A DNA stretch of 64,000 nt from the NCBI RefSeq assembly GCF_034006665.1, contig NZ_JAVESI010000016.1:329-64328 (forward strand). The letters run 5' to 3'. The notes under the pieces are model-generated. The model saw nothing but the letters and a program-made list of their open reading frames with translations. It was not told where the DNA came from and ran no database searches. This DNA comes from Trichloromonas sp. (GTDB lineage: Bacteria > Desulfobacterota > Desulfuromonadia > Desulfuromonadales > Trichloromonadaceae). Of this stretch, positions 48,577 to 63,213 are shown piece by piece. A program made the translations under genes and the position numbers. Numbering within the stretch: the stretch's first letter is position 1; every line of letters starts with the position of its first letter.

Positions 48577-48960
48577 CACCCAACAGGAAGGGTCTTCCGC
48601 CGTCTGGGGCGAGAAAGGGGGGTTGGATGGTGCCGATATGATCTGGGTATGACGTCGTACAGGGTAGGCAGGTGGGTAGAATCATCAAGGATTACATCTG
48701 TTTACAGCATTTATGCTAGTCACTAAGTGAACGGAGATAAACCGAATATGAAAAAGTCAAAAAAAGGTATGGGTTGCTCAGTTATCGAACAGCAGTTTTC
48801 TGATTCGGGATGTTTGAATGGGAACTCTGTTCAGGATCGGCGAAATCACAGTACACAAACTTAAAAATCGTGAGGGCTATCAGAGGCTATATCGTTGCTC
48901 CGGCCCGACCTGCTCGGCCTGCAAGGGAAAAGCTAAGCGGACGGTGGGTGAGATTCAGTT

Positions 48961-49191: not shown

Positions 49192-49192
49192 G

Positions 49193-49741
49193 ATGACTTT
49201 TAATATTGAGACGTTGGCCCTTCCGCAAGACTTTCAAAATATGTCTGGCGCGAAAAAACTATGGACCACAATCCCGGTGCGCAAACCCGGTAAAACAGAA
49301 TTTTTCCGGGTCCTGGACGATGATGCCTATACCCTTCGGACTGCCATCATCGAATTGAAGGAAGAGAGCGAAACCTACCTTGTCGATGGTGCTCTTCTGA
49401 GTGACCTGTCAGAGTTTATCGTTCCGGTACAGGTTGTTGTCGCCCTCACACGGATGGGCTCATTGATGGTTTGGCCGCTTAAACTACCGCAGGAGCGGCA
49501 CAATGCCTGGCACGCTACCGCGCTCCAAGCAGCCGAGCTCGCCAAGAAAAAATGGATCTGTATGCGGGCCAATATGTCTGCCGGCTGTTATGACATCCTG
49601 GAAGCAACTGCTGCCCTGCCGGAGCCGGAGTTCCCGACAGCGGAACTGTCTTTTGAGCGGATGCTGGAACTGGCCTTCGCGAACTATTACGTCAACAGCC
49701 TCAATCACCCGCTTATTCGGCGGCTGACCGGCCAAGTGTAG
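49193..49741 (+). CDS. Hypothetical protein tightly linked to the DNA polymerase gene
   Basis: 182-aa ORF, 1-nt gaps to both neighbours. No known motif. Confidence 0.5.
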   Translation: MTFNIETLALPQDFQNMSGAKKLWTTIPVRKPGKTEFFRVLDDDAYTLRTAIIELKEESETYLVDGALLSDLSEFIVPVQVVVALTRMGSLMVWPLKLPQERHNAWHATALQAAELAKKKWICMRANMSAGCYDILEATAALPEPEFPTAELSFERMLELAFANYYVNSLNHPLIRRLTGQV

Positions 49742-49742
49742 T

Positions 49743-51458
49743 ATGGGACTGAATAATTACTCTAACATCTGGTGCCTGGACTTTGAGTTCCGGGCACCAG
49801 ACGGAGAGCGCCCTGCGGTTCGCTGTCTGGTGGCCATTGAATATCATTCTGGGCAGACGATCAGACGCTGGTGCGATGAATTGGGTGAGACGCCACCGTT
49901 CCTGATCGATGAGTCGACCCTGATCGTTGCCTATTACGCCTCGGCTGAAATGGGCTGCTTCTTATCATTGGGGTGGGATCTGCCGCCAAATCTCCTCGAT
50001 CTGTATGTCGAGTTCAGGCGGAAGCATAACGGACTTTTTCTCAAGGCCGGATCGGACCTTAACGGTGCGCTTATCCAATATGGCCTGAGTGTGATCCCGG
50101 ATAAGCAGGAGATGCGCGAACTTGCCATGCGCGAAGGAGACGTTTACTCAGAGCAGGAAAAGTCTGACTTGGTCGCGTACTGTCAGGCTGATGTTGAAGC
50201 TCTCATCCACCTCCTTCCCAAGATGGAGGAGAGCATCGACTGGCCTCGGGCCTTAGTGCGCGGCAGCTATATGAAGGCCGTCGCGGTCATGGAGTACAAT
50301 GGGGTGCCGATCGATACCGAAATCCTCGAACGACTCCGTGACCGCTGGAACGATATCCGGCAGGATTTGATTGCTGAAATCGACCAGGATTACGGCGTGT
50401 ACGAAGGAAGCGTCTTCAAGGCCGACAGATTTGAACAGTGGCTGACGCAACAAGGGATCGCCTGGCCGCGACTTGAATCCGGTAAGCTTGATCTTAAAAG
50501 TGATACCTTCCGTGACATCGCAAAAGGTCACCCCGAACTTGAACCACTAAAAGAGCTGCGCTATTCCCTTTCAGAGCTGCGCCTGAATAAGTTGGCTGTG
50601 GGACGGGATGGCCGCAACCGTTGCCTGCTTTCTCCCTTCCGGGCAAAAACCAGCCGCAATCAACCCAGTAACAGCAAATTTATTTTCGGTCCTTCGGCCT
50701 GGTTGAGAGCGCTGATAAGGCCGGCCGTCGGCTATGGTCTTGCTTATATTGATTGGAGTCAGCAGGAGTTTGCCATCGCTGCGGTCCTAAGCGGCGACGC
50801 GGATATGCAGCAGGCGTATACCTCTGGCGATCCCTATCTGGAATTTGCAAAGCTCGCCGGGGCCGTTCCCCCAGAGGGAACCAAAGACAGCCATCCTAAG
50901 GAGCGCAAGCTTTTTAAGAACTGTATCTTAGGTGTCCAGTACGGCATGGGTCCCGAGTCTCTGGCCCAGCGTATCGGGGAGCCGGTGATTAAAGGCCGCG
51001 AGCTGATCCAACTCCATAAAGAGATATTTCCCGATTATTGGAAATGGTCACAGGCTGTTGTCGACTATGCCCTGACCAGCGGAACTCTCTTCTCGACCCT
51101 GGGCTGGTCACTATCCATCAATAGTCAAGCAAATCCTCGATCCCTGGCAAACTGGCCCGTCCAGACCAATGGAGCCGAAATCCTGCGATTGGCGGTGATT
51201 CTCATCGTCGAGACTGGGATCGCGGTCTGCTGCCCTGTCCATGACGCGATCCTGATCGAAGCCCCACTGGAGCGGCTGGACGAAGATATCCGCACGGCCC
51301 AGCAGCTGATGCAACAAGCAGGGGAAATGATCCTTGGCGGGTTCAAGCTCCGCACGGACGTCGACCGTGTCTGTTATCCCGAGCGGTACATCGATGAGCG
51401 AGGGGAGAAGATGTGGGAAAAGATGATGAAATTGTTGAGTGCGTTCGACTCCGAATGA
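49743..51458 (+). CDS. Family A DNA polymerase with 3'-5' exonuclease domain (mobile-element type, no 5' nuclease)
   Basis: Exo motifs CLDFEF, YCQADVEAL. Pol motif A AYIDWSQQEFAIAA, motif B KERKLFKNCILGVQYGMG, motif C CPVHDAILIE. Confidence 0.85.
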   Translation: MGLNNYSNIWCLDFEFRAPDGERPAVRCLVAIEYHSGQTIRRWCDELGETPPFLIDESTLIVAYYASAEMGCFLSLGWDLPPNLLDLYVEFRRKHNGLFLKAGSDLNGALIQYGLSVIPDKQEMRELAMREGDVYSEQEKSDLVAYCQADVEALIHLLPKMEESIDWPRALVRGSYMKAVAVMEYNGVPIDTEILERLRDRWNDIRQDLIAEIDQDYGVYEGSVFKADRFEQWLTQQGIAWPRLESGKLDLKSDTFRDIAKGHPELEPLKELRYSLSELRLNKLAVGRDGRNRCLLSPFRAKTSRNQPSNSKFIFGPSAWLRALIRPAVGYGLAYIDWSQQEFAIAAVLSGDADMQQAYTSGDPYLEFAKLAGAVPPEGTKDSHPKERKLFKNCILGVQYGMGPESLAQRIGEPVIKGRELIQLHKEIFPDYWKWSQAVVDYALTSGTLFSTLGWSLSINSQANPRSLANWPVQTNGAEILRLAVILIVETGIAVCCPVHDAILIEAPLERLDEDIRTAQQLMQQAGEMILGGFKLRTDVDRVCYPERYIDERGEKMWEKMMKLLSAFDSE

Positions 51459-51461
51459 CAG

Positions 51462-51498
51462 GGTATGCAGGCCTGCAATGCCAGGTATGCAGGCCTGC
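51462..51498 (+). promoter_or_regulatory. Two 15-bp direct repeats, each containing the palindrome GCAGGCCTGC (candidate operator)
   Basis: GGTATGCAGGCCTGC at 51462-51476 and 51484-51498, 22-bp centre-to-centre, followed by TTGACC. Confidence 0.5.
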
Positions 51499-51570
51499 TT
51501 GACCCGGTCCCATTATATGAATAGTTATTAGAGTTAACAATATAAGACAGATGTCTCAGGAGGATTCCCG

Positions 51571-51918
51571 ATGGGGAAGACGATGATTGTCGATGACATT
51601 GAATGTGAACAAGTTGAGTTTGGAACCAGAAAAAGGGAACCCCGACAATTGTATGCCACCATCCCCCTCGACTGGATCAAAGATTTACCAGGAGAAAGCA
51701 GGAAGGTCAAGCTCATCACAATTCTCTGGTGTTACAGCAGCTTAAAAGGTGGTGGGTGGTTCTCCTGCGGGAATAAAGTGTGTGAACGGTATGGGATTTC
51801 GCCGAGCCAAAAATCTCGAATTCTGGCATCACTTGAAAAGTCAGGCCATCTCGAACTGAAGCTTAGCCCAGGGAAAGCCGTTCAAGTGAAACTCACTAAA
51901 CCATTAGGGTGGAAGTAA
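51571..51918 (+). CDS. Winged-helix-like DNA-binding protein
   Basis: RBS AGGAGG. YGISPSQKSRILASLEKSGHLEL. Confidence 0.4.
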   Translation: MGKTMIVDDIECEQVEFGTRKREPRQLYATIPLDWIKDLPGESRKVKLITILWCYSSLKGGGWFSCGNKVCERYGISPSQKSRILASLEKSGHLELKLSPGKAVQVKLTKPLGWK

Positions 51919-52142: not shown

Positions 52143-53297
52143 ATGTCCGTACAGAATTTAACCACCGCGTTTCTCTCCACCCTGGATTCCTGCCCAGCCG
52201 CAGCCGGCCGTATCGAATACTGTGATACCGAGCTGCCGGGCTTCTTTCTGGAGTATCGGACCAAAGGAAAGGGGACCTATTACTTCCGTTACCGCAATCG
52301 CGGCAGCAGAGCTCGCCAGATGCGCTTGGGGAAACTCGGCGAAATCTCTCTTGCAGACGCCCGTGCCAAGGCGTACCGGCTGCATCAGCAGGTCAGTGCC
52401 GGAGAGAATCCGCAGCACCAGGGTTCCGGCGAAATGCCCAGTCTGGCACAGTTTGTCCGGGAACATTACCTGCCTTACGCCAAAGACCACAAACGCAGCT
52501 GGTCCACCGATGAAACCCTGCTGCGCCTGCATCTGCTGCCGGTTTTCGGCGAAAAGCCCCTCGATCAGATCCAGCGACAGGAGATCGCTACTCTCCATCG
52601 GCGCCTGAAACAGCAAGGCTATGCTGCCGGAACCTGCAACCGGATTCTGGTGCTGCTGCGCTTTCTCTTCAACTGTGCCCGACGCTGGGATATTTTGCCG
52701 GCAACGACCACCAATCCCTGTAGCGGCATTCCCGCCTTTGCCGATCGTGGTGCTCGCGAGCGCTACCTCAGTGATGCCGAGGTCAAACGGCTGCTGACCC
52801 AACTCGACAAAAGCCGCCATCAACAGGTCGCCCGCATCGTCAAACTGTTGCTCTACACCGGGGCTCGCCGCTCCGAGATCGTCAACGCCCGCTGGGAGTA
52901 CATCGATCTGGAACAGCAGGTGCTGACCGTTCCTCTGTCCAAGTCCGGCAAGCCCCGGCATATCGCCCTGCCCGATGCCGCCGTCAAACTGCTGCGCGAG
53001 ATCCCCCGCCAGGCCGATGTGCCTTGGGTCTTCCACAACCCCAAAACCGGCAAGCCGCTTGTCTCCTTCTACTGCGCCTGGAATAGCCTGCGCAAGGCCG
53101 CAGCCATTCCCGATGTGCGCCTGCACGATCTGCGTCATTCCTTTGCCAGTTTTCTGGTGCGCTCCGGCCGCTCCCTCTACGAGGTGCAGAAACTGCTGGG
53201 CCACTATGACCCGAAGGTCACCATGCGTTATGCCCATCTCTCCCCCCGTTCCCTGGTGGACGCCGCCAACATCGCGGCCCAGATCATCGGCGGGTAG
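52143..53297 (+). CDS. Tyrosine recombinase, P4-type integrase (integrase 2, paralog of integrase 1)
   Basis: PGFFLEYRTKGKGTYYFRYR, TGARRSE, HDLRHSFASF, LLGHYDPKVTMRYAH. Colinear with integrase 1 over the whole length. Confidence 0.9.
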   Translation: MSVQNLTTAFLSTLDSCPAAAGRIEYCDTELPGFFLEYRTKGKGTYYFRYRNRGSRARQMRLGKLGEISLADARAKAYRLHQQVSAGENPQHQGSGEMPSLAQFVREHYLPYAKDHKRSWSTDETLLRLHLLPVFGEKPLDQIQRQEIATLHRRLKQQGYAAGTCNRILVLLRFLFNCARRWDILPATTTNPCSGIPAFADRGARERYLSDAEVKRLLTQLDKSRHQQVARIVKLLLYTGARRSEIVNARWEYIDLEQQVLTVPLSKSGKPRHIALPDAAVKLLREIPRQADVPWVFHNPKTGKPLVSFYCAWNSLRKAAAIPDVRLHDLRHSFASFLVRSGRSLYEVQKLLGHYDPKVTMRYAHLSPRSLVDAANIAAQIIGG

Positions 53298-53508: not shown

Positions 53509-55236
53509 TTAGCCCGTCCGGCCCAAGGCGGGGTTCAGCAGAAATCCCTCCAGCAGACCAAACAGCGCCGCTGGCAAATCGTCAACCCGGTCAATCACGC
53601 AGTGCTTTGGCCAGAGCCGTTTCACCGCGTCGGTCTGCAGACCAATGGCGCCAATCTCAATGCCGTCGCGTTGCAGCCGCCGTGTCGCGGTACCCGCAGA
53701 CTCCACATCGTCCGGGTATCCATCGGTGATCAGCAGAAGCAATTTGCGCGGCTGCGGCTGGCCCAACAGTGCTGCCCGGGCAAGCCACAGGCCCGTCGCG
53801 GTCGGGGTGCTGCCTGAGGCCCTGAACGCAAACCACGGCGCCTCAGGTCTCTCCCCGAAATCAGCCAGCAAGCGCAGACGGTCGTCTTCCCTGCCGGCAA
53901 AGACGGCCGAAGCGGCGCTCACCCCCGCCAGGTGGTACAGCGTCCGGTGCAGGGCGAAGGCACTGGCGTTGGCCACGGCGCTGAGGCTCTCTCCCTGCGG
54001 TGTTCGGGTCAACATGCTGCCCGAGCCATCGATCAGCACAAACACAGCGGTGTTGAGCGCGCTGACCTCCTCCTTCTTCCGAAAAATACGTGGGTCACCC
54101 AGGGACAGGCGAACCAGCCGCCGGGTATCCATCCGCCGACCCGACTTTGCCGCACTCTGGGCACGGCGCTGCTGAGCCTGCAGCAGGGTCAGCAACCTCG
54201 ACCGCAGGCGCGAACAGACCCGTAAGGCTTGCGCTTCATCCACCGGCTTGACAAAGGGTTCCGGCCCACTGACCCGTTCCGCTGCCGGCAGTAGGGGAAT
54301 CACGGCACAGAGCTTCTGAGGCGTTCGTGCCGAGAGATCATTCAGATCTTGCAACAGCGCGGCGCTGCGATCCCCGTAGCCACCCGGACGACCACTGCCG
54401 CCGACAAGCATCTGCTCCAGCTCTTCAGGGCCTAAAGTCGACCGCTGCAAATGGGCCTCCCCGTCAGAACACTGACAATCTGCAGCCTGCTGTCCGCCGG
54501 GAGAGGGACTCCCGTCAAGAGTTTTGAAGATGGGCGAGGGCTGGGCCGCCGCTGACGCGCCGGCGAACTCTGTCTGGGAGACCTCTTTTGCTGCAGACGA
54601 AGGCGGTAACTCACCCGCCGCCGTTTCCTGCGGCTTCTCCTGCGCCACCTGCTTGAGGCGCTCAAGAATCCGCTCGGCCAGCGACCGGGCCTCTTGGGTC
54701 GATGTCAGGGCGGCAAAACCCGGCTGCAGCAAAGACTCAAGATCGACCATAAAGGCCTGGCCCAGCTCCTGCTCCAGCAGGGTGCGGCAGCGATCCTTTA
54801 GCGGCGTCACCCCGGGGTAGAGCAGGATTTCTCCATAGCCGTAGGTCAGAACCCAGCCGAGCAGGGCCGTTGCTTTATCCCTGGGCAGCAGATCGTCTTT
54901 GGCAAGATAATGACGGGTTACCGCCTCCAGGTCATAGCGGGTCCCGGGCCGCTCCTTCAAGGTCAAGGCCTCGACCCGCACATCCTCGATAATGTTGGTC
55001 AGTTCACCCACCAGGCCGGCAGGACACTCCCCCCGGGTGTATTTCTTGTGCGCCACCTCGTGAAACACCAGGCCCGTCATCAGCATCCGGCCAAGGGGCG
55101 TGGTCGGCATCCGGGCGATGTTGATGCGGCGGCCATCACTACTGCAGTAGGAAGTCTCACCACTCACGGTGAGGGTGAGATCGGTATCCTTCCCCAGGGT
55201 CCGGGCCAGCCCGGCCAGTTCGGTATCGCGAAGCAT
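53509..55236 (-). CDS. VWA-domain protein with N-terminal HExxH metallopeptidase-like domain (CobT-like / DUF2201-like)
   Basis: GLVFHEVAHKKY, NIIEDVRVE, MIDAS VFVLIDGSGSM, LLLITDGYPDD. Confidence 0.7.
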   Translation of the reverse strand: MLRDTELAGLARTLGKDTDLTLTVSGETSYCSSDGRRINIARMPTTPLGRMLMTGLVFHEVAHKKYTRGECPAGLVGELTNIIEDVRVEALTLKERPGTRYDLEAVTRHYLAKDDLLPRDKATALLGWVLTYGYGEILLYPGVTPLKDRCRTLLEQELGQAFMVDLESLLQPGFAALTSTQEARSLAERILERLKQVAQEKPQETAAGELPPSSAAKEVSQTEFAGASAAAQPSPIFKTLDGSPSPGGQQAADCQCSDGEAHLQRSTLGPEELEQMLVGGSGRPGGYGDRSAALLQDLNDLSARTPQKLCAVIPLLPAAERVSGPEPFVKPVDEAQALRVCSRLRSRLLTLLQAQQRRAQSAAKSGRRMDTRRLVRLSLGDPRIFRKKEEVSALNTAVFVLIDGSGSMLTRTPQGESLSAVANASAFALHRTLYHLAGVSAASAVFAGREDDRLRLLADFGERPEAPWFAFRASGSTPTATGLWLARAALLGQPQPRKLLLLITDGYPDDVESAGTATRRLQRDGIEIGAIGLQTDAVKRLWPKHCVIDRVDDLPAALFGLLEGFLLNPALGRTG

Positions 55237-55473
55237 AAGCGTATCCTTTCAGGGTAGCGGCGCATCCAGCGCCAGGATTGAAGGTTGGGGAGTAAGGGAG
55301 GTTAAAAACGGTTGCCGGGGCCGGCTGAGCTGCCGAGCCTCATGGCAAGCACAAAAAAAGCCCCGCAACCAGCAGGCTGCGGTGGCAGCGAACGGGTGCG
55401 GGGCTTCAGAGGTCGTTTAGGGTCAGAGCAGAGCAGGGCGGGGCGGTCTTAAGCCCTTTGCCGCCTGAGGGTG

Positions 55474-57051
55474 TTAGGTGCGCGACAAGAACTCCCCGGC
55501 GTTCGAGGCCGGTTCCACAGCTTCCCAAGCAAAACCTGTAACATTTCGGCTGGCCGAATCAAAATCAATGCCGATCAGGAGAATCTTTTTCCCCTCGGCC
55601 AAGTATTTTTGCTGGTAGTTGCGCTCCTTGATCTGCGCGAGCGCATCACCACTGCCGTCAACCTTGAACTCCAGAATGTAGATGACGTCGCTCAAATGGA
55701 TGGTCAGGTCAATGCGGCCGGTGCTGGTAACATCTTCGGCGACAAGATCGAGGCCCAAGCTGGCCAGATAGGCGTAGATGACGCTGGCGTAATAACCCTC
55801 GTAGCTGCCGATGGTGTTGTTGACGTAGTTGTTGTAGGGAATCGCAGCGAACAGGGAGGTAAGGGTCTGTTTGAATCTAACAATCTCTTGTTTTTTAAGA
55901 TCTGTTAAGAGCTGATTCTTGATCGGTAGAACGTTGCTGTTGCCGGTAAGATAGCTGACGACCACATTATTGAAGGTGATGATAACTTCTCGGTTTGGAA
56001 ATCCCAAAGAATAAGTCATGCCAAAATCAGTTTGTCTTGCCGCCTTGACAGTCAAGTACCCCGCTTGAAACAAAATCGGCTCCAGCTGGATGTTATCGAT
56101 ATCATAACTGTCGATCAGCTCCTCACTTACGTCAAGCTTGTCCAGTTGCGGAATATAGTAATTGTTCTGCTGAATCAGGGTAATCAGGAAGGTCGGCGTG
56201 CCGGTGGCAAACCAGTAGTTTTTGAATTGCTGGCCATTGTCAATAAACAGCAGAATGTCAAAGGGGTTGTAAACGGGTTCACCGAGAAAATTATAGCCGT
56301 TATACCAGCGGCGAACCTCGTCCCGGTCAGCCCCTTCTAGGTGCGCAGCGAAGGTGGTATCCAGATCCCGTTCGGTGTAACCGCAAATAGTGGCGTAGGT
56401 TGGATTCAGGCTGATATCCTTGAGGTTGTTCAGGCCGCTGAAGACCGACATCTTGCTGAACTTGCTCACCCCGGTGAGCAGCGTGAACCGGATATAGGCA
56501 TCGCTGCTCTTGATGATCGAATAAAGATCGCGCAACACGTCACGGCCCTGCCGCGCGACCTCGATCTGATCCAGGTTATCGACAATGAACTTGTCGTATT
56601 CATCGACCAGGATGACGACTTTCTGGCCATATTTCTGGTAAGTATTCCAGATCAGCTGTTTGAAGCAGCCCCCCAGGTTGCGGGAGTTGTCACAGGTGAC
56701 TCCCAGCCGCTGCTGATTAAAGGTGAGCAGATCGCTGACGTCCTCCTGCATATCCTCTAGACTGCGCGCGACTCCGCTGAAGTCCAAAGCGATCACCGGG
56801 TAAACCGTATCCCAGTCCCACTTGTCCTCAATAGACAGCCCCTTGAAGAATTCCCGGCGCCCCTCGAACAGAGCCTGCAGGGTCGAGACCAGCAGGCTCT
56901 TGCCAAAGCGGCGCGGCCGGGCAAGAAAGTAGTATTTACCTTCAGTGACCAGCCGATGGAGTAGCGGAGTCTTATCCACATAGGCATAGCCCTCCGAGCG
57001 GATTTCACTGAAGGTCTGAATACCGATGGGCAGTTTTGCCAGTTTCGTCAT
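55474..57051 (-). CDS. AAA-ATPase-like (PF09820-type) N-domain plus PD-(D/E)XK (PDDEXK_9-type) C-domain protein
   Basis: LPIGIQTFSEIRSEGYAYVDKTPLLHRL...YFLARPRRFGKSLLVSTL. C-terminal GRIDLTIHL..VIYILEFKVDGS. RBS AGGAG. Confidence 0.7.
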   Translation of the reverse strand: MTKLAKLPIGIQTFSEIRSEGYAYVDKTPLLHRLVTEGKYYFLARPRRFGKSLLVSTLQALFEGRREFFKGLSIEDKWDWDTVYPVIALDFSGVARSLEDMQEDVSDLLTFNQQRLGVTCDNSRNLGGCFKQLIWNTYQKYGQKVVILVDEYDKFIVDNLDQIEVARQGRDVLRDLYSIIKSSDAYIRFTLLTGVSKFSKMSVFSGLNNLKDISLNPTYATICGYTERDLDTTFAAHLEGADRDEVRRWYNGYNFLGEPVYNPFDILLFIDNGQQFKNYWFATGTPTFLITLIQQNNYYIPQLDKLDVSEELIDSYDIDNIQLEPILFQAGYLTVKAARQTDFGMTYSLGFPNREVIITFNNVVVSYLTGNSNVLPIKNQLLTDLKKQEIVRFKQTLTSLFAAIPYNNYVNNTIGSYEGYYASVIYAYLASLGLDLVAEDVTSTGRIDLTIHLSDVIYILEFKVDGSGDALAQIKERNYQQKYLAEGKKILLIGIDFDSASRNVTGFAWEAVEPASNAGEFLSRT

Positions 57052-57112
57052 GGATTTTCTCCTGGATTTTCTTCTGACAGTCCCCGATTGATGGCGCCGC
57101 AAAGGTTTTCCT

Positions 57113-58063
57113 CTAAAAATCCCATTGCAAAGCCGTGGCCGGTTGGCGGGGATTTTGCGTCCCAGAGGCAGCTAGTGTCACCGTACAAGTATTCATTATA
57201 TCACCGGAGTCGCCAAAGCCCAAGGGATCCTCTTCCTCAATCTGCTGATCCACCGGCAAACCCATCCGCATCAGTTGGCGGCTGAGCAGGCCCGCCAGCA
57301 GATTGAGATCGTTTCCGGCGATGGGACCCGAACTGGGCAGGTGACTGAGGCTCTCGTCGATGCTGTTTATCAGAGGGGGTATCTGTTGATCCAGAAACGC
57401 CAGAGCCGAAAGCTTCTCCCGCATGGCTACAAGTGGCCGCAGAGCCTTGCGGGTGATACTCCCCTTGCCGGCGTAAGAGGCAGCAAAAGCCGTCCGGGCC
57501 ATCAGCCGGATTTCATGGCAGAGCTGGCCGTAAAGCCCCTGAGTCTGTTCCTGCAGAGGATCACTCTCCGGCAGGGCTTGCGACGGTTGAATGGCCACCG
57601 GAGTAAAGCCGAACTGCAGCGCCTTGTCCACCGTCGTCACAGAATCGATGGCGGCCCGGATGATCGGTGCCCATTGTGGCGGGTTGGCATCAATCCAGGA
57701 GTTGACCTGCGCATCATACTGCTGCAGCAGCTGAGACTTGGCCGCTTGAAAATCCGTTTGCAGCGCAATCAGACGCTGCTCGACCTCCGCTGCCTTGTCG
57801 GTCGGTACTGCGTACCCGCCCAGAAAGCGTACTCCGGTGGCCAGCAGAATCTTCTCCGCCTCGCGTTTCATGGCCTGAAAGGGCGCGAGCGCCTCGCTGC
57901 TAATGATTTTCTTGCTGCCGAGCGAGGCCAGAGTTCCCGGCGGCAGCTGGTGGGTATCGATACCGTTAAGCGCCAGATCCTCTTCTTTGAGTTTCTTGCG
58001 ACCCGTCCACAGCCGGATATCGAGGATGAACAGAACAATCTCTTCCAGAACCGTCAGTTTCAT
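57113..58063 (-). CDS. DUF3150 family protein
   Basis: ILDIRLWTGRKKLKEEDL...LPPGTLASLGSKKIISSEALAPFQAMKREAEKILLATGVRFLGGYAVP. Confidence 0.65.
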   Translation of the reverse strand: MKLTVLEEIVLFILDIRLWTGRKKLKEEDLALNGIDTHQLPPGTLASLGSKKIISSEALAPFQAMKREAEKILLATGVRFLGGYAVPTDKAAEVEQRLIALQTDFQAAKSQLLQQYDAQVNSWIDANPPQWAPIIRAAIDSVTTVDKALQFGFTPVAIQPSQALPESDPLQEQTQGLYGQLCHEIRLMARTAFAASYAGKGSITRKALRPLVAMREKLSALAFLDQQIPPLINSIDESLSHLPSSGPIAGNDLNLLAGLLSRQLMRMGLPVDQQIEEEDPLGFGDSGDIMNTCTVTLAASGTQNPRQPATALQWDF

Positions 58064-58118
58064 GGTGATTCTCCTTTCCAGGTAGCATGAGTGCTCAAGT
58101 GCTGAGGGTGGGTGTTGC

Positions 58119-58499
58119 CTAGAAATCCCAGGTAAGGGAGTGCTGGCGCGAGGGTGTGATGTGAATCGGGTCAGAGTCGGTAACGGCCGTCAGGGGTTGT
58201 GCTGCGTCCTCGGCCCTGGCGGTGGCATCTTCAGCCGATCGCCGGGATTGCCAGCCGTCAGGAGCCTGATAGGTATCCAGGATCCGATAGCCCTTGGTCA
58301 GCTTCTGCTTGACCAGATCCCGCAAGTCGCGATGGTTGCCGCGTTCTTGCCGATGCTGGTTCACCTGGCCCGTCTTGCCCCAGTAACGGTGAAAGGTTCC
58401 ATCCTGGGTCAGGCAGCCCACCCAGTCCTTGCCGCCAGAGCGTGACGGCGAGCGCAGATGAAAGCCGATCAGGGTGTCGGGCGGAAGCGGAGGGCTCAT
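58119..58499 (-). CDS. WGR domain protein
   Basis: GGKDWVGCLTQDGTFHRYWGKTGQ...LVKQKLTKGYRIL. ATGA overlap with the AAA+ gene. Confidence 0.65.
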   Translation of the reverse strand: MSPPLPPDTLIGFHLRSPSRSGGKDWVGCLTQDGTFHRYWGKTGQVNQHRQERGNHRDLRDLVKQKLTKGYRILDTYQAPDGWQSRRSAEDATARAEDAAQPLTAVTDSDPIHITPSRQHSLTWDF

Positions 58500-59497
58500 G
58501 ACGGGTCTCCCGCAGGCGGAGCCAGCTCGGGCGCCGGAATGTTGAAGTGGGTCTGGATCAGTTTATGAAGCATGGCGCGCACATGCTCATCGACCCCGTG
58601 ACCGAACGCCTTATCGAAGGCATGATAGACCACCGGCACATCCGTCCGCTGGGCTCCCAACAGCAGTTTGCGGCCCCAGCGTTTGAGATCCCGGATCGAG
58701 ATGGGGCCGGGACAACTGCCCTGCCGATAACTGGTGCGGATATCGGCAGCCACCTTGACCATGGCGCTGATGACCTTCTCATCCAGCTGGGGCAGGGCGC
58801 CGGACAGGATCTGCTCTTCGATCTTGGCTGCGGGATAGTCCAGGCTCCACTTTTCAAAGCGATTGAGGGTGGCCAGATTAAAGACACTGGTGGCCGCGTA
58901 GATATCACCTCCTTGACCATCGCCCCGGGTGTTGGCGGTAGCCGCCATCAAAATCCGGTTCGCCGGAGTGATGACCGTGCCGTCATCCAGAGTCACCGGC
59001 GCCTTTTCCAGCAGCCGATGACAGGCCATCATCACCTCCGGATTGTAACCATCGATCTCATCAAAGAGGAGGGCATAGCCCCGGGCATAGGCTTCCAGCA
59101 GGGGACCTGGGGTAAAGACCGTATTGCCATTCACCAGCTGAACCCGGCCCAGGATATCGTCCGGTTCGGTACTCTTCTTCGCACTGACGATCACCGTCGG
59201 CATGTGCAGCTTGGCGAACAGCTGTTTTAAGGCTTCGGTCTTGCCGCAGCCTGTCGGACCGGAAACCCACAGCGGCTCCGGCTCTGGATCGCACAGCCAT
59301 TCGATGCAATCCTTTGCCAGTTCCGGGCTCCAGACATAGGTTTCCAGGGCTTGGGGGACTAGGGGATGACCCGGCTTGAAACCGGGCAGAGGCATTTGAC
59401 TGGCAAAGCCGAAGATCTCCTGCACGCTGTAGGTTGTCGCTAGTGGCTCAGGTGCGCTGAAAAGATGGGTGAGGGATGGATGTGTCGGGTTCTTCAT
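58496..59497 (-). CDS. CobS-like / MoxR-type AAA+ ATPase
   Basis: Walker A SGPTGCGKTE, Walker B LLFDEIDG, MAATANTRGDG. RBS GGAGGAG before ATG 59497. Confidence 0.75.
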   Translation of the reverse strand: MKNPTHPSLTHLFSAPEPLATTYSVQEIFGFASQMPLPGFKPGHPLVPQALETYVWSPELAKDCIEWLCDPEPEPLWVSGPTGCGKTEALKQLFAKLHMPTVIVSAKKSTEPDDILGRVQLVNGNTVFTPGPLLEAYARGYALLFDEIDGYNPEVMMACHRLLEKAPVTLDDGTVITPANRILMAATANTRGDGQGGDIYAATSVFNLATLNRFEKWSLDYPAAKIEEQILSGALPQLDEKVISAMVKVAADIRTSYRQGSCPGPISIRDLKRWGRKLLLGAQRTDVPVVYHAFDKAFGHGVDEHVRAMLHKLIQTHFNIPAPELAPPAGDPS

Positions 59498-59631
59498 CGA
59501 AAGTCTCCTCCAGTTCGGGGTCAGATGGGCAAGGCAGACCAGCAGCCGGATCCCTGGTTTTTGATCGGATCCGGCGGCCGGGTTTAGGGCGAAGCACAAT
59601 CGGACAGATTCTTGACGGGCTTAGGGCGCTC

Positions 59632-59820
59632 TTAGCTCATCAGCCAGCCAAGCGCCTGACGGCCATACTTGTAGGTACCGTAGCCCACTCCCGCACCAAC
59701 AGCGGCCACCGCCGCCGCGACGCCGTAAGCCAGGGTACAGGCCGGGTCACCCTGGGCGTTCATCATTACTTTCTGGCCGACTTCCAGGGCCACCTGGATC
59801 ACATCCTTCTCGGTACTCAT
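59632..59820 (-). CDS. Small hydrophobic protein (62 aa)
   Basis: AYGVAAAVAAVGAGVGYGTY glycine-zipper-like TM segment. RBS AGGAAAGGAA. Confidence 0.4.
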   Translation of the reverse strand: MSTEKDVIQVALEVGQKVMMNAQGDPACTLAYGVAAAVAAVGAGVGYGTYKYGRQALGWLMS

Positions 59821-59981
59821 GGGCGTATTCCTTTCCTGCGGTTTTGGGTTGCGTGGGATGGTGGATACAAAAAAACCCCGTCATCTGCTCTCGTGCGATG
59901 CGGGGGGGTTGGCGTGCTTTTTTGAAAAGGTTCCTGTATTTAAATGCCCGGAACGATGAGGCTGTCGTTCGGTCGCTTGTT

Positions 59982-60812
59982 TTACCAGTTCCGGCACTGC
60001 TGCTGATACGGACAGCCACTGCAATGCCATCCCGCACAGGGCAGAAACGCCTCTGCCGCGATGCCGGATAAGACGGCATGGGCCATACGGATAAAGCGTC
60101 GGGTGTCCGCCGGCGTTCTGAGGGTTAAGAGCCGCTCGACTTTGGGCGTTTTGAGCTTGCGGATGACGTTGTAGCAGCAGTGCAGGGTCTCATCCGGTTT
60201 CAGGTAGCCGTTGTGCCTGAGCAGCAGCGCATAAGCGCTCAGCTGCAGATCCTGATCGATGGATTCCTGAGACGGGGAATTCTTGGCGGTTTTATGATCC
60301 ACCGCCAACAAACGGCCCAGCTGATCCCGCAACAACAGATCCACAGCCCCCACCAGATGAAACTCCGTCAAGTCGCCATCGGGCGTGGTCAGTGGCAGAC
60401 TCAAGGGCAGTTCGGTGGCAACGACTTCCATGCCGCAAAAGCCGGGATCCTCCAGATACGCCCGGAGCAACTGTTCTCCCCAGGCCAGCAGCTCCGCAGG
60501 ACTGGTTGCTTCATTGCTGTAGAGAATGGGCGCGCGAGGGATCGCCAGCTCGGAGCTTAAGGTCTCCCGATAAAACGCCAGCACCGCGTCTAGCGGCTCT
60601 GCGGCACCCTTCATCCGGAAGGCCTCATAGTAGTGCGCCAAGGCGGCATGGATGCTGCTGCCGAGAATCAGGGCACTGCTGGTGTGCTCTGGCGGATAGC
60701 CCTTGACGTACTGAAAAAAGTAGCGCAGAGAGCAGGTCAGATAGGTGTTGACCTGGCTGTAGCTGAGATGCAGGTGATGACGTAACACCCTTAAGGAGGG
60801 GGCAGGGCTCAT
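59982..60812 (-). CDS. PD-(D/E)XK nuclease, Cas4/RecB-like with C-terminal Cys cluster
   Basis: SYSQVNTYLTCSLRYFF, GAVDLLL...LLAVDHKTAKN, QLSAYALLL, CAGWHCSGCPYQQQC. RBS AGGAGG before ATG 60812. Confidence 0.7.
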   Translation of the reverse strand: MSPAPSLRVLRHHLHLSYSQVNTYLTCSLRYFFQYVKGYPPEHTSSALILGSSIHAALAHYYEAFRMKGAAEPLDAVLAFYRETLSSELAIPRAPILYSNEATSPAELLAWGEQLLRAYLEDPGFCGMEVVATELPLSLPLTTPDGDLTEFHLVGAVDLLLRDQLGRLLAVDHKTAKNSPSQESIDQDLQLSAYALLLRHNGYLKPDETLHCCYNVIRKLKTPKVERLLTLRTPADTRRFIRMAHAVLSGIAAEAFLPCAGWHCSGCPYQQQCRNW

Positions 60813-60826
60813 AAGTGAACCTCCTT

Positions 60827-61519
60827 TCACGCGGCCTTGACCTGGCCGGAAAACAACGCTTCGATCAGTCTGGAGGCATCGGCTTTATTCAAAAAATCAA
60901 CCATGCGGCCATACACCTGCTGACAGTGCCGGGTGATATCGGCAGGGCTCAAGCCGGCCTCCGCTGCCAGCTTCAGAATCAGCGCCTTCTGCTTGGCGGT
61001 CAGGCGAGAACCGGAATTTACGGCAACGGGCGGCGAAAGCGGACCTGATGGTGAAGACGGATGTGGCGGTGATGGTTCCGCAGGCTGGATACGCGGCGGA
61101 GACTGCCTCTGCGACTGAGGCAGGGAATCCTCCGCTGCCTCAGTCGGGTACAGGTTCACCCCCACGCCCAGAAGGGTGGCGGCCTTCTTCAGGCCATCGG
61201 TACAGGCGGCCTTGACATTGCTGCCCAAATCGACGATCTCACCGCTATCTTTTTGACGGGTGATCTGACTGGAGCCGTAACCCTCCTTGACGATTCCAGC
61301 GGTACTGACGCGCACATGGGCAAGGACTTCCCCGGCGGTGGCGTTGATCTCGACCGAGAGAATCTCAAAGCTCCAGGCGTGGTGAAAGGCCTGGTTAAGA
61401 CGCTCGACCACCGCACTGCCTTCGACATAACTTAGGGTTGCTCCGAAGCTGCCCGGCCGCTGCCTGATCTGATCCTTTCTGAAGGGCGTTGTAAGGGTCT
61501 TTCTGGTTTCGTCATCCAT
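60827..61519 (-). CDS. Rad52/22-family single-strand annealing protein
   Basis: LTTPFRKDQIRQRPGSFGATLSYVEGSAVVERLNQAFHHAWSFEI...VKAACTDGLKKAATLLGVG. RBS AGGAGG before ATG 61519. Confidence 0.7.
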   Translation of the reverse strand: MDDETRKTLTTPFRKDQIRQRPGSFGATLSYVEGSAVVERLNQAFHHAWSFEILSVEINATAGEVLAHVRVSTAGIVKEGYGSSQITRQKDSGEIVDLGSNVKAACTDGLKKAATLLGVGVNLYPTEAAEDSLPQSQRQSPPRIQPAEPSPPHPSSPSGPLSPPVAVNSGSRLTAKQKALILKLAAEAGLSPADITRHCQQVYGRMVDFLNKADASRLIEALFSGQVKAA

Positions 61520-61851
61520 GGATGAACCTCCTTTGTTGATGTGGGTCGGCGCTGAAATGGCGAAAACACCCTGAGAGTTCAGGGCACAAAAAAGCCGGGA
61601 TTTCCTGGTAGAGGGAATGACCGGCAGCGAGATCTTAGGAACTGGTGGCCTGACCCAGGCCGGATTACACGGCAATCTCAGATTGGCCAGTTACTTTCTT
61701 TTAACAAGAGTGAGGGGGGATTTTTTTTTAGGATGCCGAGTTGGACCAAGGGCCAGGCAGAGGCAACAGAAAAGCCGCTACCTCTCAGATGGGAGGTAAC
61801 GGCCTGTAATGGGGTGAGAGGGTAGGGTTTTTGCTCACTTACGAGCAGAGG

Positions 61852-62937
61852 TTAATTCTTCAGTTCCACCACCTCTTCGGCTGTCTTGGCGTCGAAGATA
61901 TTGTCGGTAAATCGCGCCAACTCCTCCACTGTAGCTTCCGAGATGCGCTGTTCAACATGCGGTGGGACAGAGCCGAAACGACGTAGAATCAGACTGGTCA
62001 GGGTCCTGGCCTGGCCTTGCCGTTTACCTTCTTCCCGGCCTTCTTCCCGGCCTTCTTCCCGGCCTTCCTGCCGACCTTCCTGCCGACCTTCCTGCCGGCC
62101 TTCTTCCCGGCCTTTTATAACCCCCCGTTCGATTCCTTGCTTAATCCCTCGCTCGACGCCTTGCTCAATCCATTTCTGTGCTAATGTCGGCATAAGTTCC
62201 TCCAGAGTGTTGCTGGCTGCCAAACTGATTTCGATCGTCTTTTCATCCACATGGTCATTGCAGTGGATGGCGTAATGCAAATAGGTTTCGATCTTTTGCA
62301 GGGTGGTCTGATGGCTATACCCGGCCCGGAGAAGCATGACCGTAATCTGGGGCAGGGTGTCGACCAGGCTGTGCTTGCGGATGTGGTACAGGATCTCCAG
62401 AAACGCCCTGACCTCCAGGCTCAGCTCCAGACGCTGCCGATCCATCTTGGCGACGTCCCACAGGACATAGTCAAACTGCGGAGTGTAGGGCCGCATCACC
62501 TCCGGCACGGGAAGATCCAGCAGATCGATCAGGTCGCGTCGTTGCCAGCCTTCTTCCCCATGATACAGCACCAGCGGGATGATCGGGGGCAGTTTCTGCC
62601 GTGGGAACTGGCTGTGAAAGGCTTCCCACTGGGCCGCGATGTATTTGAGCAGCTGTAGGCTGCACCAGTCGTCGCTGGTGCTTTTGTGTTCAAACAGGGT
62701 GTAGATATAGGCTGAGCGGTCACTTTCTTTCAAGCGTACCCGAAAAACCATGTCGCTGTAACTGTTCTTCAACTCCGGGCTGATGTGGTGATCCGGCAGG
62801 CGCTCCATGGTTGAGAGATCAAGCAGCGCCACAATTGGCTCCGGCAGTTCATGCTGGAACAGATTGCGGGTGACGTTGAGATCATCCAGCACCCGGCAGA
62901 CAAAGGTATCATGAGGGTTATGCAGGGAATTCTCCAT
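61852..62937 (-). CDS. Rpn (YhgA-like) recombination-promoting nuclease / putative transposase
   Basis: HNPHDTFVCRVL, YSDMVFRVRLKESDRSAYIYTLFEHKS (PD-(D/E)XK core), PLVLYHGEEGW. C-terminal EGRQ/EGRE repeats. Confidence 0.7.
   Translation of the reverse strand: MENSLHNPHDTFVCRVLDDLNVTRNLFQHELPEPIVALLDLSTMERLPDHHISPELKNSYSDMVFRVRLKESDRSAYIYTLFEHKSTSDDWCSLQLLKYIAAQWEAFHSQFPRQKLPPIIPLVLYHGEEGWQRRDLIDLLDLPVPEVMRPYTPQFDYVLWDVAKMDRQRLELSLEVRAFLEILYHIRKHSLVDTLPQITVMLLRAGYSHQTTLQKIETYLHYAIHCNDHVDEKTIEISLAASNTLEELMPTLAQKWIEQGVERGIKQGIERGVIKGREEGRQEGRQEGRQEGREEGREEGREEGKRQGQARTLTSLILRRFGSVPPHVEQRISEATVEELARFTDNIFDAKTAEEVVELKN
62027..62110 (-). repeat. 12-nt in-frame tandem repeat x7 within the Rpn gene
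   Basis: CCTTCTTCCCGG x3, CCTTCCTGCCGA x2, CCTTCCTGCCGG, CCTTCTTCCCGG. Encodes (EGRE)3(EGRQ)3-type repeats. Confidence 0.95.
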
Positions 62938-63079
62938 GCTTGGTATTGTAGCCGTAAGCCCACTGGCCGGCAAATGGAAAAAACTTGGTCGCCGTTGCCT
63001 TGCCCTGCAACAGGTTCTCATATTCAGGTTTGCGCCCCCCCCCACCCGGCAACGCCAGGACAGCTCTAATTTGACATCC

Positions 63080-63213
63080 ATGTCGGAAAATGGTCGGTAA
63101 AATCGACGGCCCACGAACAGCCCAAATCCGCATAGTCCCTGGTGGATCAGGCGAATTCACCGATGTGCATTGTGCCGGCGACTTGTTAAATGTCGGAAAA
63201 TGTTCGGAAAAAT
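63080..63213. repeat. Two 24-bp direct repeats 110 bp apart, upstream of the Rpn gene
   Basis: ATGTCGGAAAATGGTCGGTAAAAT (63080-63103) and ATGTCGGAAAATGTTCGGAAAAAT (63190-63213), 22/24 identical. Confidence 0.85.

Follow-up and report, generated by a model that had tools for sequence, protein, structure and literature searches.

The minus-strand operon that occupies positions 53509–61519 of a 64,000-nucleotide stretch of Trichloromonas sp. contig NZ_JAVESI010000016.1 (this whole stretch is hereafter called the window) corresponds distantly, as judged from sequence comparisons, to hde, the host-defense-evasion operon carried by SXT/R391 elements and IncC plasmids. Its conserved module consists of an annealase, a nuclease, a 62-aa protein, a CobS-like AAA+ ATPase, a WGR-like protein, a DUF3150 protein and a CobT-like VWA protein. 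We lean, by a small margin over even, towards a reading in which this island cargo combines a repair arm (annealase and nuclease) with a CobS/CobT-like machine and protects the DNA of the incoming element.

Organization of the operon

The operon comprises eight ORFs, and not nine as proposed in the initial annotation, whose coordinates and strand are otherwise confirmed by the ORFs and by gene calls made independently for the contig (Table 1). The sequence also bears out the AGGAG-type ribosome-binding sites upstream of most genes, that of the Rad52-family gene being AAAGGAGGT, and the ATGA overlap between the stop codon of the AAA+ gene and the start of the WGR-like gene. The domain calls were verified with Pfam and other searches, with one reservation concerning the 126-aa protein (see below). 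Family searches with the 62-aa protein gave no significant match. Nucleotide homology to three independent relatives spans exactly 53558–61541.

Table 1. Features of the operon and of its immediate flank (window coordinates)
Feature	Position	Strand	Support
P4-type tyrosine integrase, convergent with the operon	52146..53297	+	PF00589, PF13356
CobT-like adaptor, 575 aa	53509..55236	-	PF11775/PF00092 (CobT_C/VWA), E 3e-8 and 2.6e-5
Terminator-like hairpin and T-run, between the inserted gene and the VWA gene	55363..55382	-	
PF09820 (AAA-ATPase_like) and PF08011 (PD-(D/E)XK) gene	55474..57102	-	Pfam E 1.8e-65, 2.4e-20
DUF3150 protein, 316 aa	57113..58063	-	PF11348, E 7e-87
Divergent WGR-like protein, 126 aa	58119..58499	-	pSD orthologue matches Pfam WGR
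CobS-like AAA+ ATPase, motor	58496..59497	-	PF07728 (AAA_5), E 2e-18
Conserved glycine-rich 62-aa protein, role unassigned	59632..59820	-	same position in L013, L025, L048, L049
Cas4/AddB-like PD-(D/E)XK nuclease	59982..60812	-	PF12705 (PDDEXK_1), E 3e-36
Rad52-family single-strand annealing protein, 230 aa	60827..61519	-	PF04098 (Rad52_Rad22), E 2.5e-16

The PF09820/PF08011 gene, which lies between the DUF3150 and VWA genes, is a secondary insertion outside the conserved module. Indeed, it is absent from all the related loci compared, its G+C content is 0.49–0.54 as against about 0.60, and it is separated from the start of the VWA gene by the hairpin and a 237-nt gap, the DUF3150–VWA gap being 87–88 nt in loci L048 and L049. 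The inserted gene and the terminator may interrupt the operon and uncouple the VWA gene in the Trichloromonas copy. The integrase gene, which also directly follows the VWA gene in L048, L049 and L025, probably marks the edge of an island of ~9–10 kb. A search for att repeats at the island found none, and no transfer genes are visible on it, so that entry into a new host presupposes mobilization by something else.

The recombination pair is exchangeable

The Rad52-family protein has its annealase domain at the N-terminus, joined by a Pro-rich linker to a small helical domain at the C-terminus; its PHROG matches are Erf-like/SSAP, and orthologues hold the same position in L013, L048, L049 and L025. 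The Cas4-like nuclease, encoded after a 14-nt spacer, carries DxK at residue 171 and a four-Cys cluster made of C27 and a C-terminal C264-x2-C267-x5-C273 arrangement (CxxCx5C), and matches the TIGR00372 cas4 model with an E-value of 4.8e-12, under that model's cutoff. The window, L013, L048 and L049 combine Rad52 with a Cas4-like nuclease, the Geobacter loci Bet with a Cas4-like nuclease, and L031, L033, L034 and L041 ERF with a Cas4-like nuclease; IncC-type loci have ssb-bet-exo. The annealase beside the module is exchanged across all three superfamilies (Rad52, RecT/Bet and ERF), and two types of nuclease alternate (Cas4-like and lambda-Exo/YqaJ). The link to single-strand-annealing recombination seen at the outset is real and survives non-orthologous replacement of both partners, and the literature bears out the initial statement that SXT/R391 elements keep bet/exo next to a cobS-like gene.

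A CobS-like motor and a WGR-like protein

The AAA+ protein displays a Walker A motif (GPTGCGKT, 59237–59260) and a Walker B motif (LLFDEID), and aligns with CobS (PDB 9ujv) at full length (residues 21–326, E 4e-23); NorQ and CbbQ are also among its sequence matches. It is not a true CobS, since it scores 77.9 bits against TIGR01650 (CobS), whose cutoff is 558. Its identity to the IncC AAA protein, Vcrx089, is 28% (E 6e-36).

The 126-aa protein, initially annotated as a WGR protein, had no WGR match above threshold in its own Pfam search. The call is retained because its orthologue on the Geobacter plasmid pSD matches PF05406 (WGR, E 1.7e-10); the two proteins align across GGK-W / WG / KGY. A disordered linker leads to the C-terminal tail, LTWDF (58122–58136). 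The WGR-like family aligns with the Vcrx090-like family with an hhalign probability of 74% (E 2.7e-5), and the Azospirillum and L029 members of the latter have plain WGR motifs.

The adaptor is a CobT homologue with a zincin motif

As first annotated, the 575-aa protein combines a zincin-like HEVAH N-domain with a VWA MIDAS domain. The N-domain (residues 1–200), which contains HEVAH (55048–55062) and NIIED (54982–54996), is followed by a disordered linker (205–263), a conserved shaft-like segment (~334–390) and the VWA domain, with DGSGS (54016–54030), T477 and D505 as its MIDAS. H59, E60, H63, N81, E84 and D85, as well as the core MIDAS residues D403, S405, S407, T477 and D505, are invariant both in 18 and in 39 sequences; the same holds for T67 and R87 in the set of 18, with near-invariance in the set of 39. 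The N-domain profile matches the CobT N-domain (PDB 21vu/9uka) with E-values of 0.0085–0.016, and hhalign of the protein to P0247 (precomputed PF06213, CobT N-domain) gave 2.5e-27. The score against the CobT equivalog is 27.3 bits, for a cutoff of 759. In the AF2 model (mean pLDDT 82.4), the closest PDB folds to the VWA domain are the NorD VWA (E 2.6e-9) and the Rea1 MIDAS. Over its full length the protein is homologous to CobT; it retains the HExxH...NxxED zincin motif, which true CobT has lost, and its MIDAS is intact. We located no literature report of such a protein.

DUF3150 and WGR-like proteins have co-varying aromatic tails

The DUF3150 protein consists of a folded domain (residues 1–265), a disordered linker and a C-terminal tail, LQWDF (57116–57130). 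Comparison of its AF2 model (mean pLDDT 82.7, residues 276–307 disordered) with the PDB gave no match, i.e. no solved structural relative. A [WFY]DF ending is found in 111 of 120 close homologues, and the last residue is aromatic in 125 of 146 diverse representatives. Among the 4457 ORFs of the loci, 39 end in [WFY]DF, all of them (39/39) DUF3150 or WGR. Tail classes co-vary inside a locus between the WGR-like and DUF3150 proteins (WDF/WDF, CWF/FWF, HFF/YFF and YWF/FFF). We located no report of such a common tail, nor of DUF3150 and the VWA protein as parts of one machine.

The module is conserved on mobile elements

Synteny holds over about 40 loci. The order AAA, DUF3150, VWA is almost invariant, AAA being upstream in 32/33 loci and VWA downstream in 27/30, and is constant from Desulfuromonadales to Gamma-, Beta- and Alphaproteobacteria. 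DUF3150 is carried by 1145 PLSDB plasmids (970 conjugative), and most carriers of the module are conjugative plasmids that hold it in their conserved backbone. These counts uphold the earlier view of a conserved mobile-element module. The synteny and the nucleotide homology to three independent relatives place the arrangement far beyond chance. Genes for RadC, SSB and primase, such as establishment gene sets typically contain, lie nearby; a CobN gene was found at none of the module loci.

Known functions of the hde operon

The module had been labelled functionally uncharacterized, which does not hold for its IncC/SXT counterpart, where vcrx089 (AAA) and vcrx090 provide anti-restriction (PMC7498323, PMC11602122). 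When vcrx089-090 are deleted, transfer drops 25-fold with a type I R-M+ recipient and is unchanged with a delta-hsdR recipient, and complementation works only in the recipient (PMC7498323); EcoBI/EcoKI restriction is 424- to 906-fold higher without these genes (PMC11602122). The ssb/bet/exo genes serve CRISPR-Cas evasion and repair of CRISPR-Cas breaks (PMC7498323), and AntiDefenseFinder already lists the two systems (PMC11724313).

Co-transcription was shown with an RT primer placed in vcrx094 (PMC7498323). The published definition of hde ends at exo and includes neither DUF3150 nor VWA (PMC7498323); in IncC the gene order is AAA, 302-aa protein, ssb, bet, exo, DUF3150, VWA. Note that TnSeq of IncC in Cas+ and Cas- strains flagged only vcrx089-093, and not the DUF3150 and VWA genes, and that this screen was blind to restriction-specific genes since both strains were R-M+. 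Likewise, the published complementation is uninformative on the need for DUF3150 and VWA because the remainder of the plasmid was still in place.

Proposed mechanism and alternatives

From this homology, we infer that the counter-defense phenotype extends to the distant Trichloromonas variant. The operon would keep element DNA alive on arrival in a new cell. In one arm, the Rad52-type annealase and the Cas4-like nuclease would act on double-strand breaks inflicted by nucleases of the host, resecting and re-annealing them, as ssb-bet-exo has been shown to do in IncC. The other arm would be a motor–adaptor–effector machine patterned on the cobalt chelatase CobSTN: the CobS-like AAA+ protein would form an ATP-driven ring; the adaptor would dock its N-domain on the small subdomains of the ring and insert its shaft-like segment, with the VWA/MIDAS facing outwards; and the WGR-like and DUF3150 proteins would replace CobN, attaching by their common aromatic tail. 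The WGR arm would be the counterpart of Vcrx089-090 anti-restriction. Because the adaptor retains the zincin site, unlike true CobT, the machine may cut its target besides remodeling it, a peptidase activity predicted from the motif only. The four-protein assembly, the binding partner of the tails and the target are likewise predictions.

A less likely alternative is that the motor, with WGR and DUF3150, loads the annealase and nuclease onto element DNA as it enters or replicates, or regulates them there, the aromatic acidic tails mimicking the SSB tip or a clamp motif and joining the host replisome/SSB interactome. An SSB-tail-like or clamp-binding role would fit the tail sequences about as well as attachment to the machine. 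The tails follow long, disordered, often acidic, SSB-like linkers (e.g. ...DDDGDYFF in IncC and ...EEEDDYFF in Marinobacter), and the C-termini are FYW, LWF, MFW or LFW in Exo of IncC-type loci and NEPF in Bet of Geobacter. QLDSLGLW tails resemble the QLxLxL motif of clamp-binding proteins. The module almost always has recombination, SSB, primase and RadC genes as neighbors, and in phage ICP2 the CobT/CobS-like genes adjoin primase, helicase and polymerase genes. However, tail classes are more varied than host SSB tails or clamp motifs. Moreover, the sole recorded AAA and WGR-like phenotypes are restriction-specific and gone in a delta-hsdR recipient, and a delta(ssb-exo) mutant transfers normally without CRISPR targeting (PMC7498323), so that the module is dispensable for establishment in a defense-free host.

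We consider it improbable that the operon is a vWA-MoxR-type defense (conflict) system of mobile elements that shields the host or the element from phages or competing plasmids and uses the nuclease and annealase as its effectors. MoxR-like AAA+/VWA pairs were reportedly proposed as conflict systems by Kaur et al. in 2020, the integrase-linked island sits beside other island genes, as is typical of defense islands, and in L048 a helicase is paired with a methyltransferase on the far side of the integrase. By contrast, PADLOC on the AAA, WGR, DUF3150 and VWA proteins returned only two marginal AAA matches (E > 0.002), the phenotype demonstrated for the homologues is anti-defense, and the usual location is a conjugative backbone. 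Among the roles initially put forward, counter-defense thus has experimental backing in a homologue, and defense has none.

Finally, genuine cobalamin synthesis by CobS/CobT cobaltochelatase subunits, suggested by database names ('cobaltochelatase CobT' in some sources, PHROG categories 'porphyrin biosynthesis') and by real homology to CobS and CobT, is effectively refuted by the far too low equivalog scores of both proteins, the absence of CobN from every locus, the flanking recombination genes on mobile elements and the HExxH motif in place of RQARH.

Comparison with known systems

Like lambda Red and pairs of a Sak/Rad52-type annealase and a Cas4-like exonuclease, the window has adjoining annealase and 5'-3' nuclease genes; unlike in these phage and plasmid two-component recombinases, the pair sits inside a larger conserved operon with a CobST-like machine and without a Gam-like gene. 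NorQ–NorD, CbbQ–CbbO and the Rea1 MIDAS system also couple an AAA_5 motor to a MIDAS-bearing VWA adaptor, but they mature or repair metalloenzymes or remodel pre-ribosomes, and lack the zincin-motif N-domain, DUF3150 partner and annealase linkage present in the window.

The resemblance to CobSTN (bioRxiv 10.64898/2026.07.21.739949; PDB 9ujv, 9uka, 21vu) extends over the full length of CobS and, in CobT, over an N-domain described in that preprint as an M48C peptidase-like fold, a disordered linker, a shaft and a VWA domain with MIDAS. The window N-domain, however, has HExxH...NxxED where true CobT has RQARH...VEQ, CobN is absent, the WGR-like and DUF3150 proteins are the putative partners, the setting is mobile-element DNA recombination, and scores are far under the equivalog cutoffs.

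Protein identity to the IncC hde locus is only 24–28%. In the window operon as in hde, the gene of a CobS-like AAA_5/CbbQ_C ATPase precedes that of a WGR-like protein with a C-terminal tail, the transcription unit also encodes a nuclease and a single-strand annealase, DUF3150 and HExxH-VWA genes are found immediately downstream, and the carrier is a mobile element. They differ in the annealase (Rad52-type in the window, RecT/Red-beta in hde), in the nuclease (Cas4-like with an Fe-S cluster motif versus lambda-Exo/YqaJ) and in the ssb gene, present in hde only. The recombination genes precede AAA in the window and lie between the WGR-like gene and DUF3150 in hde, the 126-aa protein lacks the ~130-aa middle domain of Vcrx090, and the carrier is an integrase island in the former and a conjugative element in the latter.

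Gene content and genomic setting of the operon

The minus-strand operon at 53509-61519 had been counted as nine genes in the initial annotation; it comprises eight open reading frames, all recovered in an ORF listing and with start codons that agree with independent gene calls on the contig. Searches of Pfam, NCBIfam and PHROGs bore out the domain assignments (Rad52_Rad22, a PD-(D/E)XK nuclease of the Cas4/AddB-like type, a CobS-like AAA_5 ATPase, DUF3150 and CobT_C/VWA), and the HEVAH and MIDAS DGSGS motifs, the CxxCx5C cysteines, the ribosome-binding sites and the ATGA overlap were found as described. NIIED, Walker A and B, and nuclease DxK motifs were also recognized.

Two assignments had to be qualified. 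The 126-aa protein, taken for a WGR protein, has no match to WGR PF05406 of its own in Pfam at E <= 10, but its orthologue on the Geobacter anodireducens plasmid pSD matches above the cutoff (E 1.7e-10) and aligns with the window protein across the WGR core, with the W-G-[KR] and KGY motifs kept; the orthologues of the Pelovirga locus L013 and of the related locus L015 give E-values of 0.015 and 0.46. The PF09820/PF08011 gene does encode these domains, but its place in a conserved module had to be rejected: the gene is an insertion, unique to the window copy and missing from every related locus. Its G+C content is 0.49-0.54 (vs about 0.60 in its neighbours), and after it come a terminator-like hairpin (55382-55363) and 237 nt of non-coding sequence before the VWA gene; only 87-88 nt separate the DUF3150 and VWA genes in the closest relatives. 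The edge of the Pelovirga contig carries a fragment resembling this gene (table), which would fit with a family that is multi-copy or mobile in these genomes.

The window makes up nearly all of a 64.6-kb metagenome contig (ENA ERZ27247324, k141_643081), whose proteins public records place in Trichloromonas sp. (Desulfuromonadales). The left 40 kb of the window are ordinary chromosome, with genes for LPS, sugar nucleotides, ABC exporters, a TonB-type receptor and a two-component system; island-type genes start at about 43 kb. A second island-like block, directly upstream (43117-51918), encodes a P4-type integrase, a MerR-like protein, several small ORFs, a family-A polymerase and a winged-helix protein; because it is not present in the relatives L048 and L049, it probably represents a separate, tandem element. 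Two pairs of repeats in this block, of 86 and 30 nt, could be regulatory or arm-type sites. Short coding repeats occur in its MerR-like ORF and, beyond the Rad52 gene, in an Rpn-family gene (PD-(D/E)XK, RpnA/ISNCY-like recombination-promoting nuclease). Small DUF4160/DUF2442 and HTH genes precede the transposase-like ORF that stands before the first integrase. No tRNA gene was found in the window, and a search around the two integrases and the operon ends gave no att-like direct repeats.

Features of the window and of related loci (L numbers), with coordinates
Feature	Locus	Coordinates	Remarks
ORF, weak match to IS200-like Y1 transposase	window	41738-42814	just before first integrase
P4-type integrase, first	window	43117-44277	
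30-nt repeat	window	44279-44308, 44359-44388	97% identical; immediately after first integrase gene
MerR-like ORF	window	44635-46002	
Tandem 12-nt repeats, at least 16	window	45018-45305	in MerR-like ORF; code for a tetrapeptide repeat
86-nt direct repeat	window	46375-46460, 46498-46583	88% identical; AGGAGG ribosome-binding site, then ATG, after each copy
Family-A DNA polymerase	window	49743-51458	571 aa; abutted by a 182-aa ORF (1-nt gap)
Second integrase	window	52146-53297	42% identical to first integrase; minus-strand operon comes next
Rpn-family gene	window	61852-63114	just past Rad52 gene
12-nt repeats	window	62010-62129	in Rpn-family gene; code for EGRQ repeats
PF09820 gene fragment	L013	17-290	75% identical to window 56791-57064
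Three tandem tyrosine-recombinase genes	L013	8172-11370	after truncated DUF3150
Two 401-aa ORFs	L025	2455-3660, 7211-8416	one just after truncated Rad52 gene
RadC gene	L048	7943-8521	between 62-aa and AAA genes
RadC gene	L049	2150-2728	between 62-aa and AAA genes
RadC gene	L001 (pSD)	14591-15082	downstream of module
CobT-like and CobS-like genes	L047 (ICP2)	5873-8746	adjoining
Lambda-Exo-type nuclease gene	L002	7785-8795	aromatic tail
Lambda-Exo-type nuclease gene	L029	6953-7942	aromatic tail
Lambda-Exo-type nuclease gene	L036	8691-9710	aromatic tail
Lambda-Exo-type nuclease gene	L038	8689-9708	aromatic tail
Annealase and nuclease	window clade		Rad52; Cas4-like
Annealase and nuclease	many Geobacter loci		RecT/Bet; Cas4-like
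Annealase and nuclease	L031, L033, L034, L041		ERF (Pfam E 1.3e-34); Cas4-like
Annealase and nuclease	IncC plasmids, Marinobacter, Azospirillum, Halomonas		Bet (with ssb); lambda-Exo
WGR-like and DUF3150 tails	window		LTWDF; LQWDF
WGR-like and DUF3150 tails	L029		CWF; FWF
WGR-like and DUF3150 tails	IncC		DHFF; DYFF
WGR-like and DUF3150 tails	Azospirillum		DYWF; SFFF
VWA proteins ending ...AA	L002, L028, L029, L033, L036, L038, L041, L043, L044, L045		

Conservation of the module and exchange of its recombination genes

Homology to the closest relatives (L048, L049 and the Pelovirga locus; 66-77% nucleotide identity) spans exactly window positions 53558-61541. L048 and L049 share the order Rad52, nuclease, 62-aa gene, RadC, AAA, 126-aa gene, DUF3150, VWA, small ORF and convergent integrase, with chromosomal genes bordering L048 just outside the Rad52 side and L049 beyond the integrase. 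In the window clade, then, an integrase island of roughly 9-10 kb carries little besides the module. The RadC (JAB-like) gene is placed differently on pSD and missing from the window, so this slot is variable. Module decay is seen in two relatives: recombinase genes follow a truncated DUF3150 gene in the Pelovirga locus, and the two ORFs of identical length in L025 are possibly copies of one insertion element.

A wider census covered 33 genome loci and 6 plasmid loci: counting loci with enough sequence, a CobS-like AAA gene lies upstream of DUF3150 in 32/33 and a CobT-like VWA gene downstream in 27/30. The DUF3150 family forms about 1985 clusters at 50% identity and is found in 1145 PLSDB plasmids, 970 of which are conjugative.

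The link between this core and annealing recombination proved stronger than first claimed. The same AAA/DUF3150/VWA core is adjoined by all three annealase superfamilies and by two nuclease types: the adjacent genes switch family while their function stays constant. Such swaps beside a constant core are a classic signature of functional coupling.

Relationship to the hde operon of IncC plasmids

The IncC hde locus has the order AAA, 302-aa protein, ssb, bet, exo, DUF3150, VWA. As described by Roy et al. 2020 (PMC7498323), vcrx089 (the AAA gene) and vcrx090, both required in the recipient, confer protection against a type I R-M system, ssb-bet-exo repairs Cas3-induced breaks, and a single transcript was shown with an RT primer in vcrx094, which by position is the DUF3150 gene. 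Deletion of vcrx089-90 increased restriction by EcoBI/EcoKI 424- to 906-fold (Dimitriu et al. 2024, PMC11602122), and AntiDefenseFinder includes both vcrx089_090 and SSAP/exonuclease systems (PMC11724313). Protection from type I R-M and CRISPR-Cas is a phenotype on record for pVCR94, pKAZ3 and R391 only (PMC7498323, PMC11602122). Our literature searches found no functional study of DUF3150, vcrx094 or vcrx095.

The window AAA protein is 28% identical to Vcrx089 over 295 aa (BLASTP, E 6e-36) and has the same Pfam domains (AAA_5/CbbQ_C). The WGR-like protein and Vcrx090 are both encoded immediately downstream of the ATPase and end in the same kind of C-terminal tail, whereas the middle domain of Vcrx090 is missing from the window protein. 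Their families match in hhalign (probability 74%, E 2.7e-5) over 53 columns. Given this match and the plain WGR motifs of the Vcrx090-like proteins of Azospirillum and L029, the WGR-like protein is, as judged from sequence, probably a short relative of Vcrx090.

Relationship to CobS and CobT

The window AAA protein aligns end to end with the solved CobS structure (PDB 9ujv; E 4e-23). The N-domain profile of the VWA protein matches the CobT N-domain (21vu, 9uka; E 0.0085-0.016), and hhalign against P0247, a protein with a precomputed match to PF06213 (CobT N-domain), gave E 2.5e-27. In an AF2 model of the VWA protein (mean pLDDT 82.4), the N-domain is helical, residues 205-263 are a disordered linker, and a VWA domain is also seen; the nearest folds, NorD and Rea1 MIDAS, with integrin I-domains also matching, speak for the VWA domain alone, which dominated the whole-chain Foldseek search.

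This architecture is that of CobT in the aerobic cobaltochelatase CobSTN, where the CobS ring is the motor and CobT the adaptor: its M48C-peptidase-like N-domain contacts the CobS small subdomain, a linker of roughly 90 residues leads to a shaft that enters the ring, and the effector CobN sits beside the VWA/MIDAS face (bioRxiv 10.64898/2026.07.21.739949). CobT has RQARH and VEQ. By contrast, the mobile-element proteins keep H59-E60-x-x-H63 and N81-x-x-E84-D85, which do not vary among 18 or among 39 homologues and lie on consecutive predicted helices (47-66 and 74-95). The MIDAS DxSxS...T...D is complete, with D403, S405, S407, T477 and D505 invariant. It is thus plausible, from these motifs, that the mobile-element proteins are active zincins, and the comparison suggests that CobT is related to a zincin-type protein, either as its descendant or through common ancestry. 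Residues 1-201 gave no match to a Pfam peptidase family at E <= 10.

Two further observations concern these proteins. The lytic vibriophage ICP2 and its relatives carry CobT-like and CobS-like genes near primase, helicase and polymerase genes; no DUF3150 was found by tblastn. In proteobacterial-type loci, 10/13 CobT-like VWA proteins end in ...AA (AFAA, LFAA, LLAA, KLAA, KQAA, AAAA, LAAA, KSAA, GRAA), an ending not found in the window clade; being like the ssrA/ClpX C-terminal degron, it hints at rapid turnover of the adaptor.

DUF3150 and the C-terminal tails

In the DUF3150 model (mean pLDDT 82.7), a disordered linker leads to a conserved C-terminal tail. No solved structural relative was found: the best Foldseek hit in the PDB had an E-value of about 1, and a profile search of PDB sequences returned noise only. 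Fold matches were confined to uncharacterised phage proteins, those in BFVD coming from uncultured phages, and a scan of viral contigs with a single DUF3150 protein found nothing.

DUF3150 ends in [WFY]DF in 111/120 close homologues. Among 146 diverse representatives, the C-terminus is aromatic in 125, with at least two aromatics in the last four residues in 107. Over all loci, 39 of 4457 ORFs end in [WFY]DF, and all 39 are DUF3150 or WGR matches. Moreover, the tail class co-varies between the WGR-like protein and the DUF3150 of one locus (table). This suggests that the two proteins carry one docking peptide for a shared hub, for which we favour, by analogy with CobSTN, the ring or the CobT-like adaptor; the tails might instead act like the SSB tip or bind the clamp. 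A role of the WDF Asp as MIDAS ligand became less likely, as what is constant across diverse members is the aromatic C-terminus (xWF, FF, GLW), not the Asp.

Similar endings were seen in recombination proteins. Lambda-Exo-type nucleases of IncC-type loci end in FYW, LWF, MFW or LFW, and the Geobacter Bet proteins of L022, L023 and L035 in ...F[KR]F[KR]NEPF, so that recombination proteins may share the tail theme.

Discussion

With moderate confidence, we propose that the module encodes a motor-adaptor-effector anti-defence machine together with an annealase/nuclease pair that repairs breaks. What is established is the homology, synteny and motif content, together with the phenotypes published for the IncC homologues. 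The CobS-like, CobT-like, WGR-like and DUF3150 proteins would assemble into the machine, the last two taking the effector position via their tails; restriction-type complexes would be disarmed or removed, and breaks that still arise would be repaired by the annealase/nuclease pair.

More tentatively, these four proteins might form a single ATP-driven protease or remodeller, an evolutionary sibling of the cobalt chelatase with an adaptor that retains activity at its M48-like zincin site. The effector subunits would be interchangeable and dock by the common aromatic tail, host restriction or DNA-end-processing complexes would be stripped or cleaved from incoming DNA, and the DNA ends would be passed to whichever annealase/nuclease pair the element carries. 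If so, DUF3150 would be a new class of anti-defence effector and true CobT a degenerate peptidase descendant.

The main rival, an accessory role in recombination or establishment that is not specific to defence, strikes us as rather doubtful. That the module is itself a defence system is unlikely: the WGR, DUF3150 and VWA proteins have no match in PADLOC-DB 2.0, the AAA protein has two marginal ones (E 0.0025-0.0097) and only the nuclease matches Cas4 models; none of these matches is meaningful, and membership was rejected. Cobalamin synthesis can be dismissed as extremely unlikely, the scores against the CobS and CobT equivalogs lying far under the TIGR01650/TIGR01651 cutoffs (77.9 vs 558.55 and 27.3 vs 759.05 bits), with no CobN-like gene in the window or any related locus.

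Multidrug resistance is carried to a large extent by IncC plasmids and SXT/R391 elements, and the hde operon is one reason why they cross restriction and CRISPR barriers. As the window shows, the five genes published as hde belong to a larger module of much greater age, found from Desulfuromonadales to Gammaproteobacteria, in which the CobS-like motor, DUF3150 and the zincin-motif CobT-like adaptor are the constant core and the recombination enzymes are interchangeable. This draws attention to two unstudied backbone genes, DUF3150 and VWA, in more than 1100 sequenced plasmids. CobSTN offers a structural template for how the anti-restriction ATPase might work, and the common C-terminal tail a simple handle on assembly.

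The hde anti-defence operon, MoxR/VWA pairs and annealase/exonuclease pairs are known kinds of system. What is new is a distant variant in which a minimal integrase island carries Rad52 and a Cas4-like nuclease, together with evidence for DUF3150 and a zincin-motif CobT homologue as constant partners of the anti-restriction ATPase, and the tail common to WGR-like and DUF3150 proteins. Like the IncC locus, the window operon has an annealase and an exonuclease, Rad52 and the Cas4-like nuclease being functionally equivalent but non-homologous to the IncC RecT and YqaJ enzymes.
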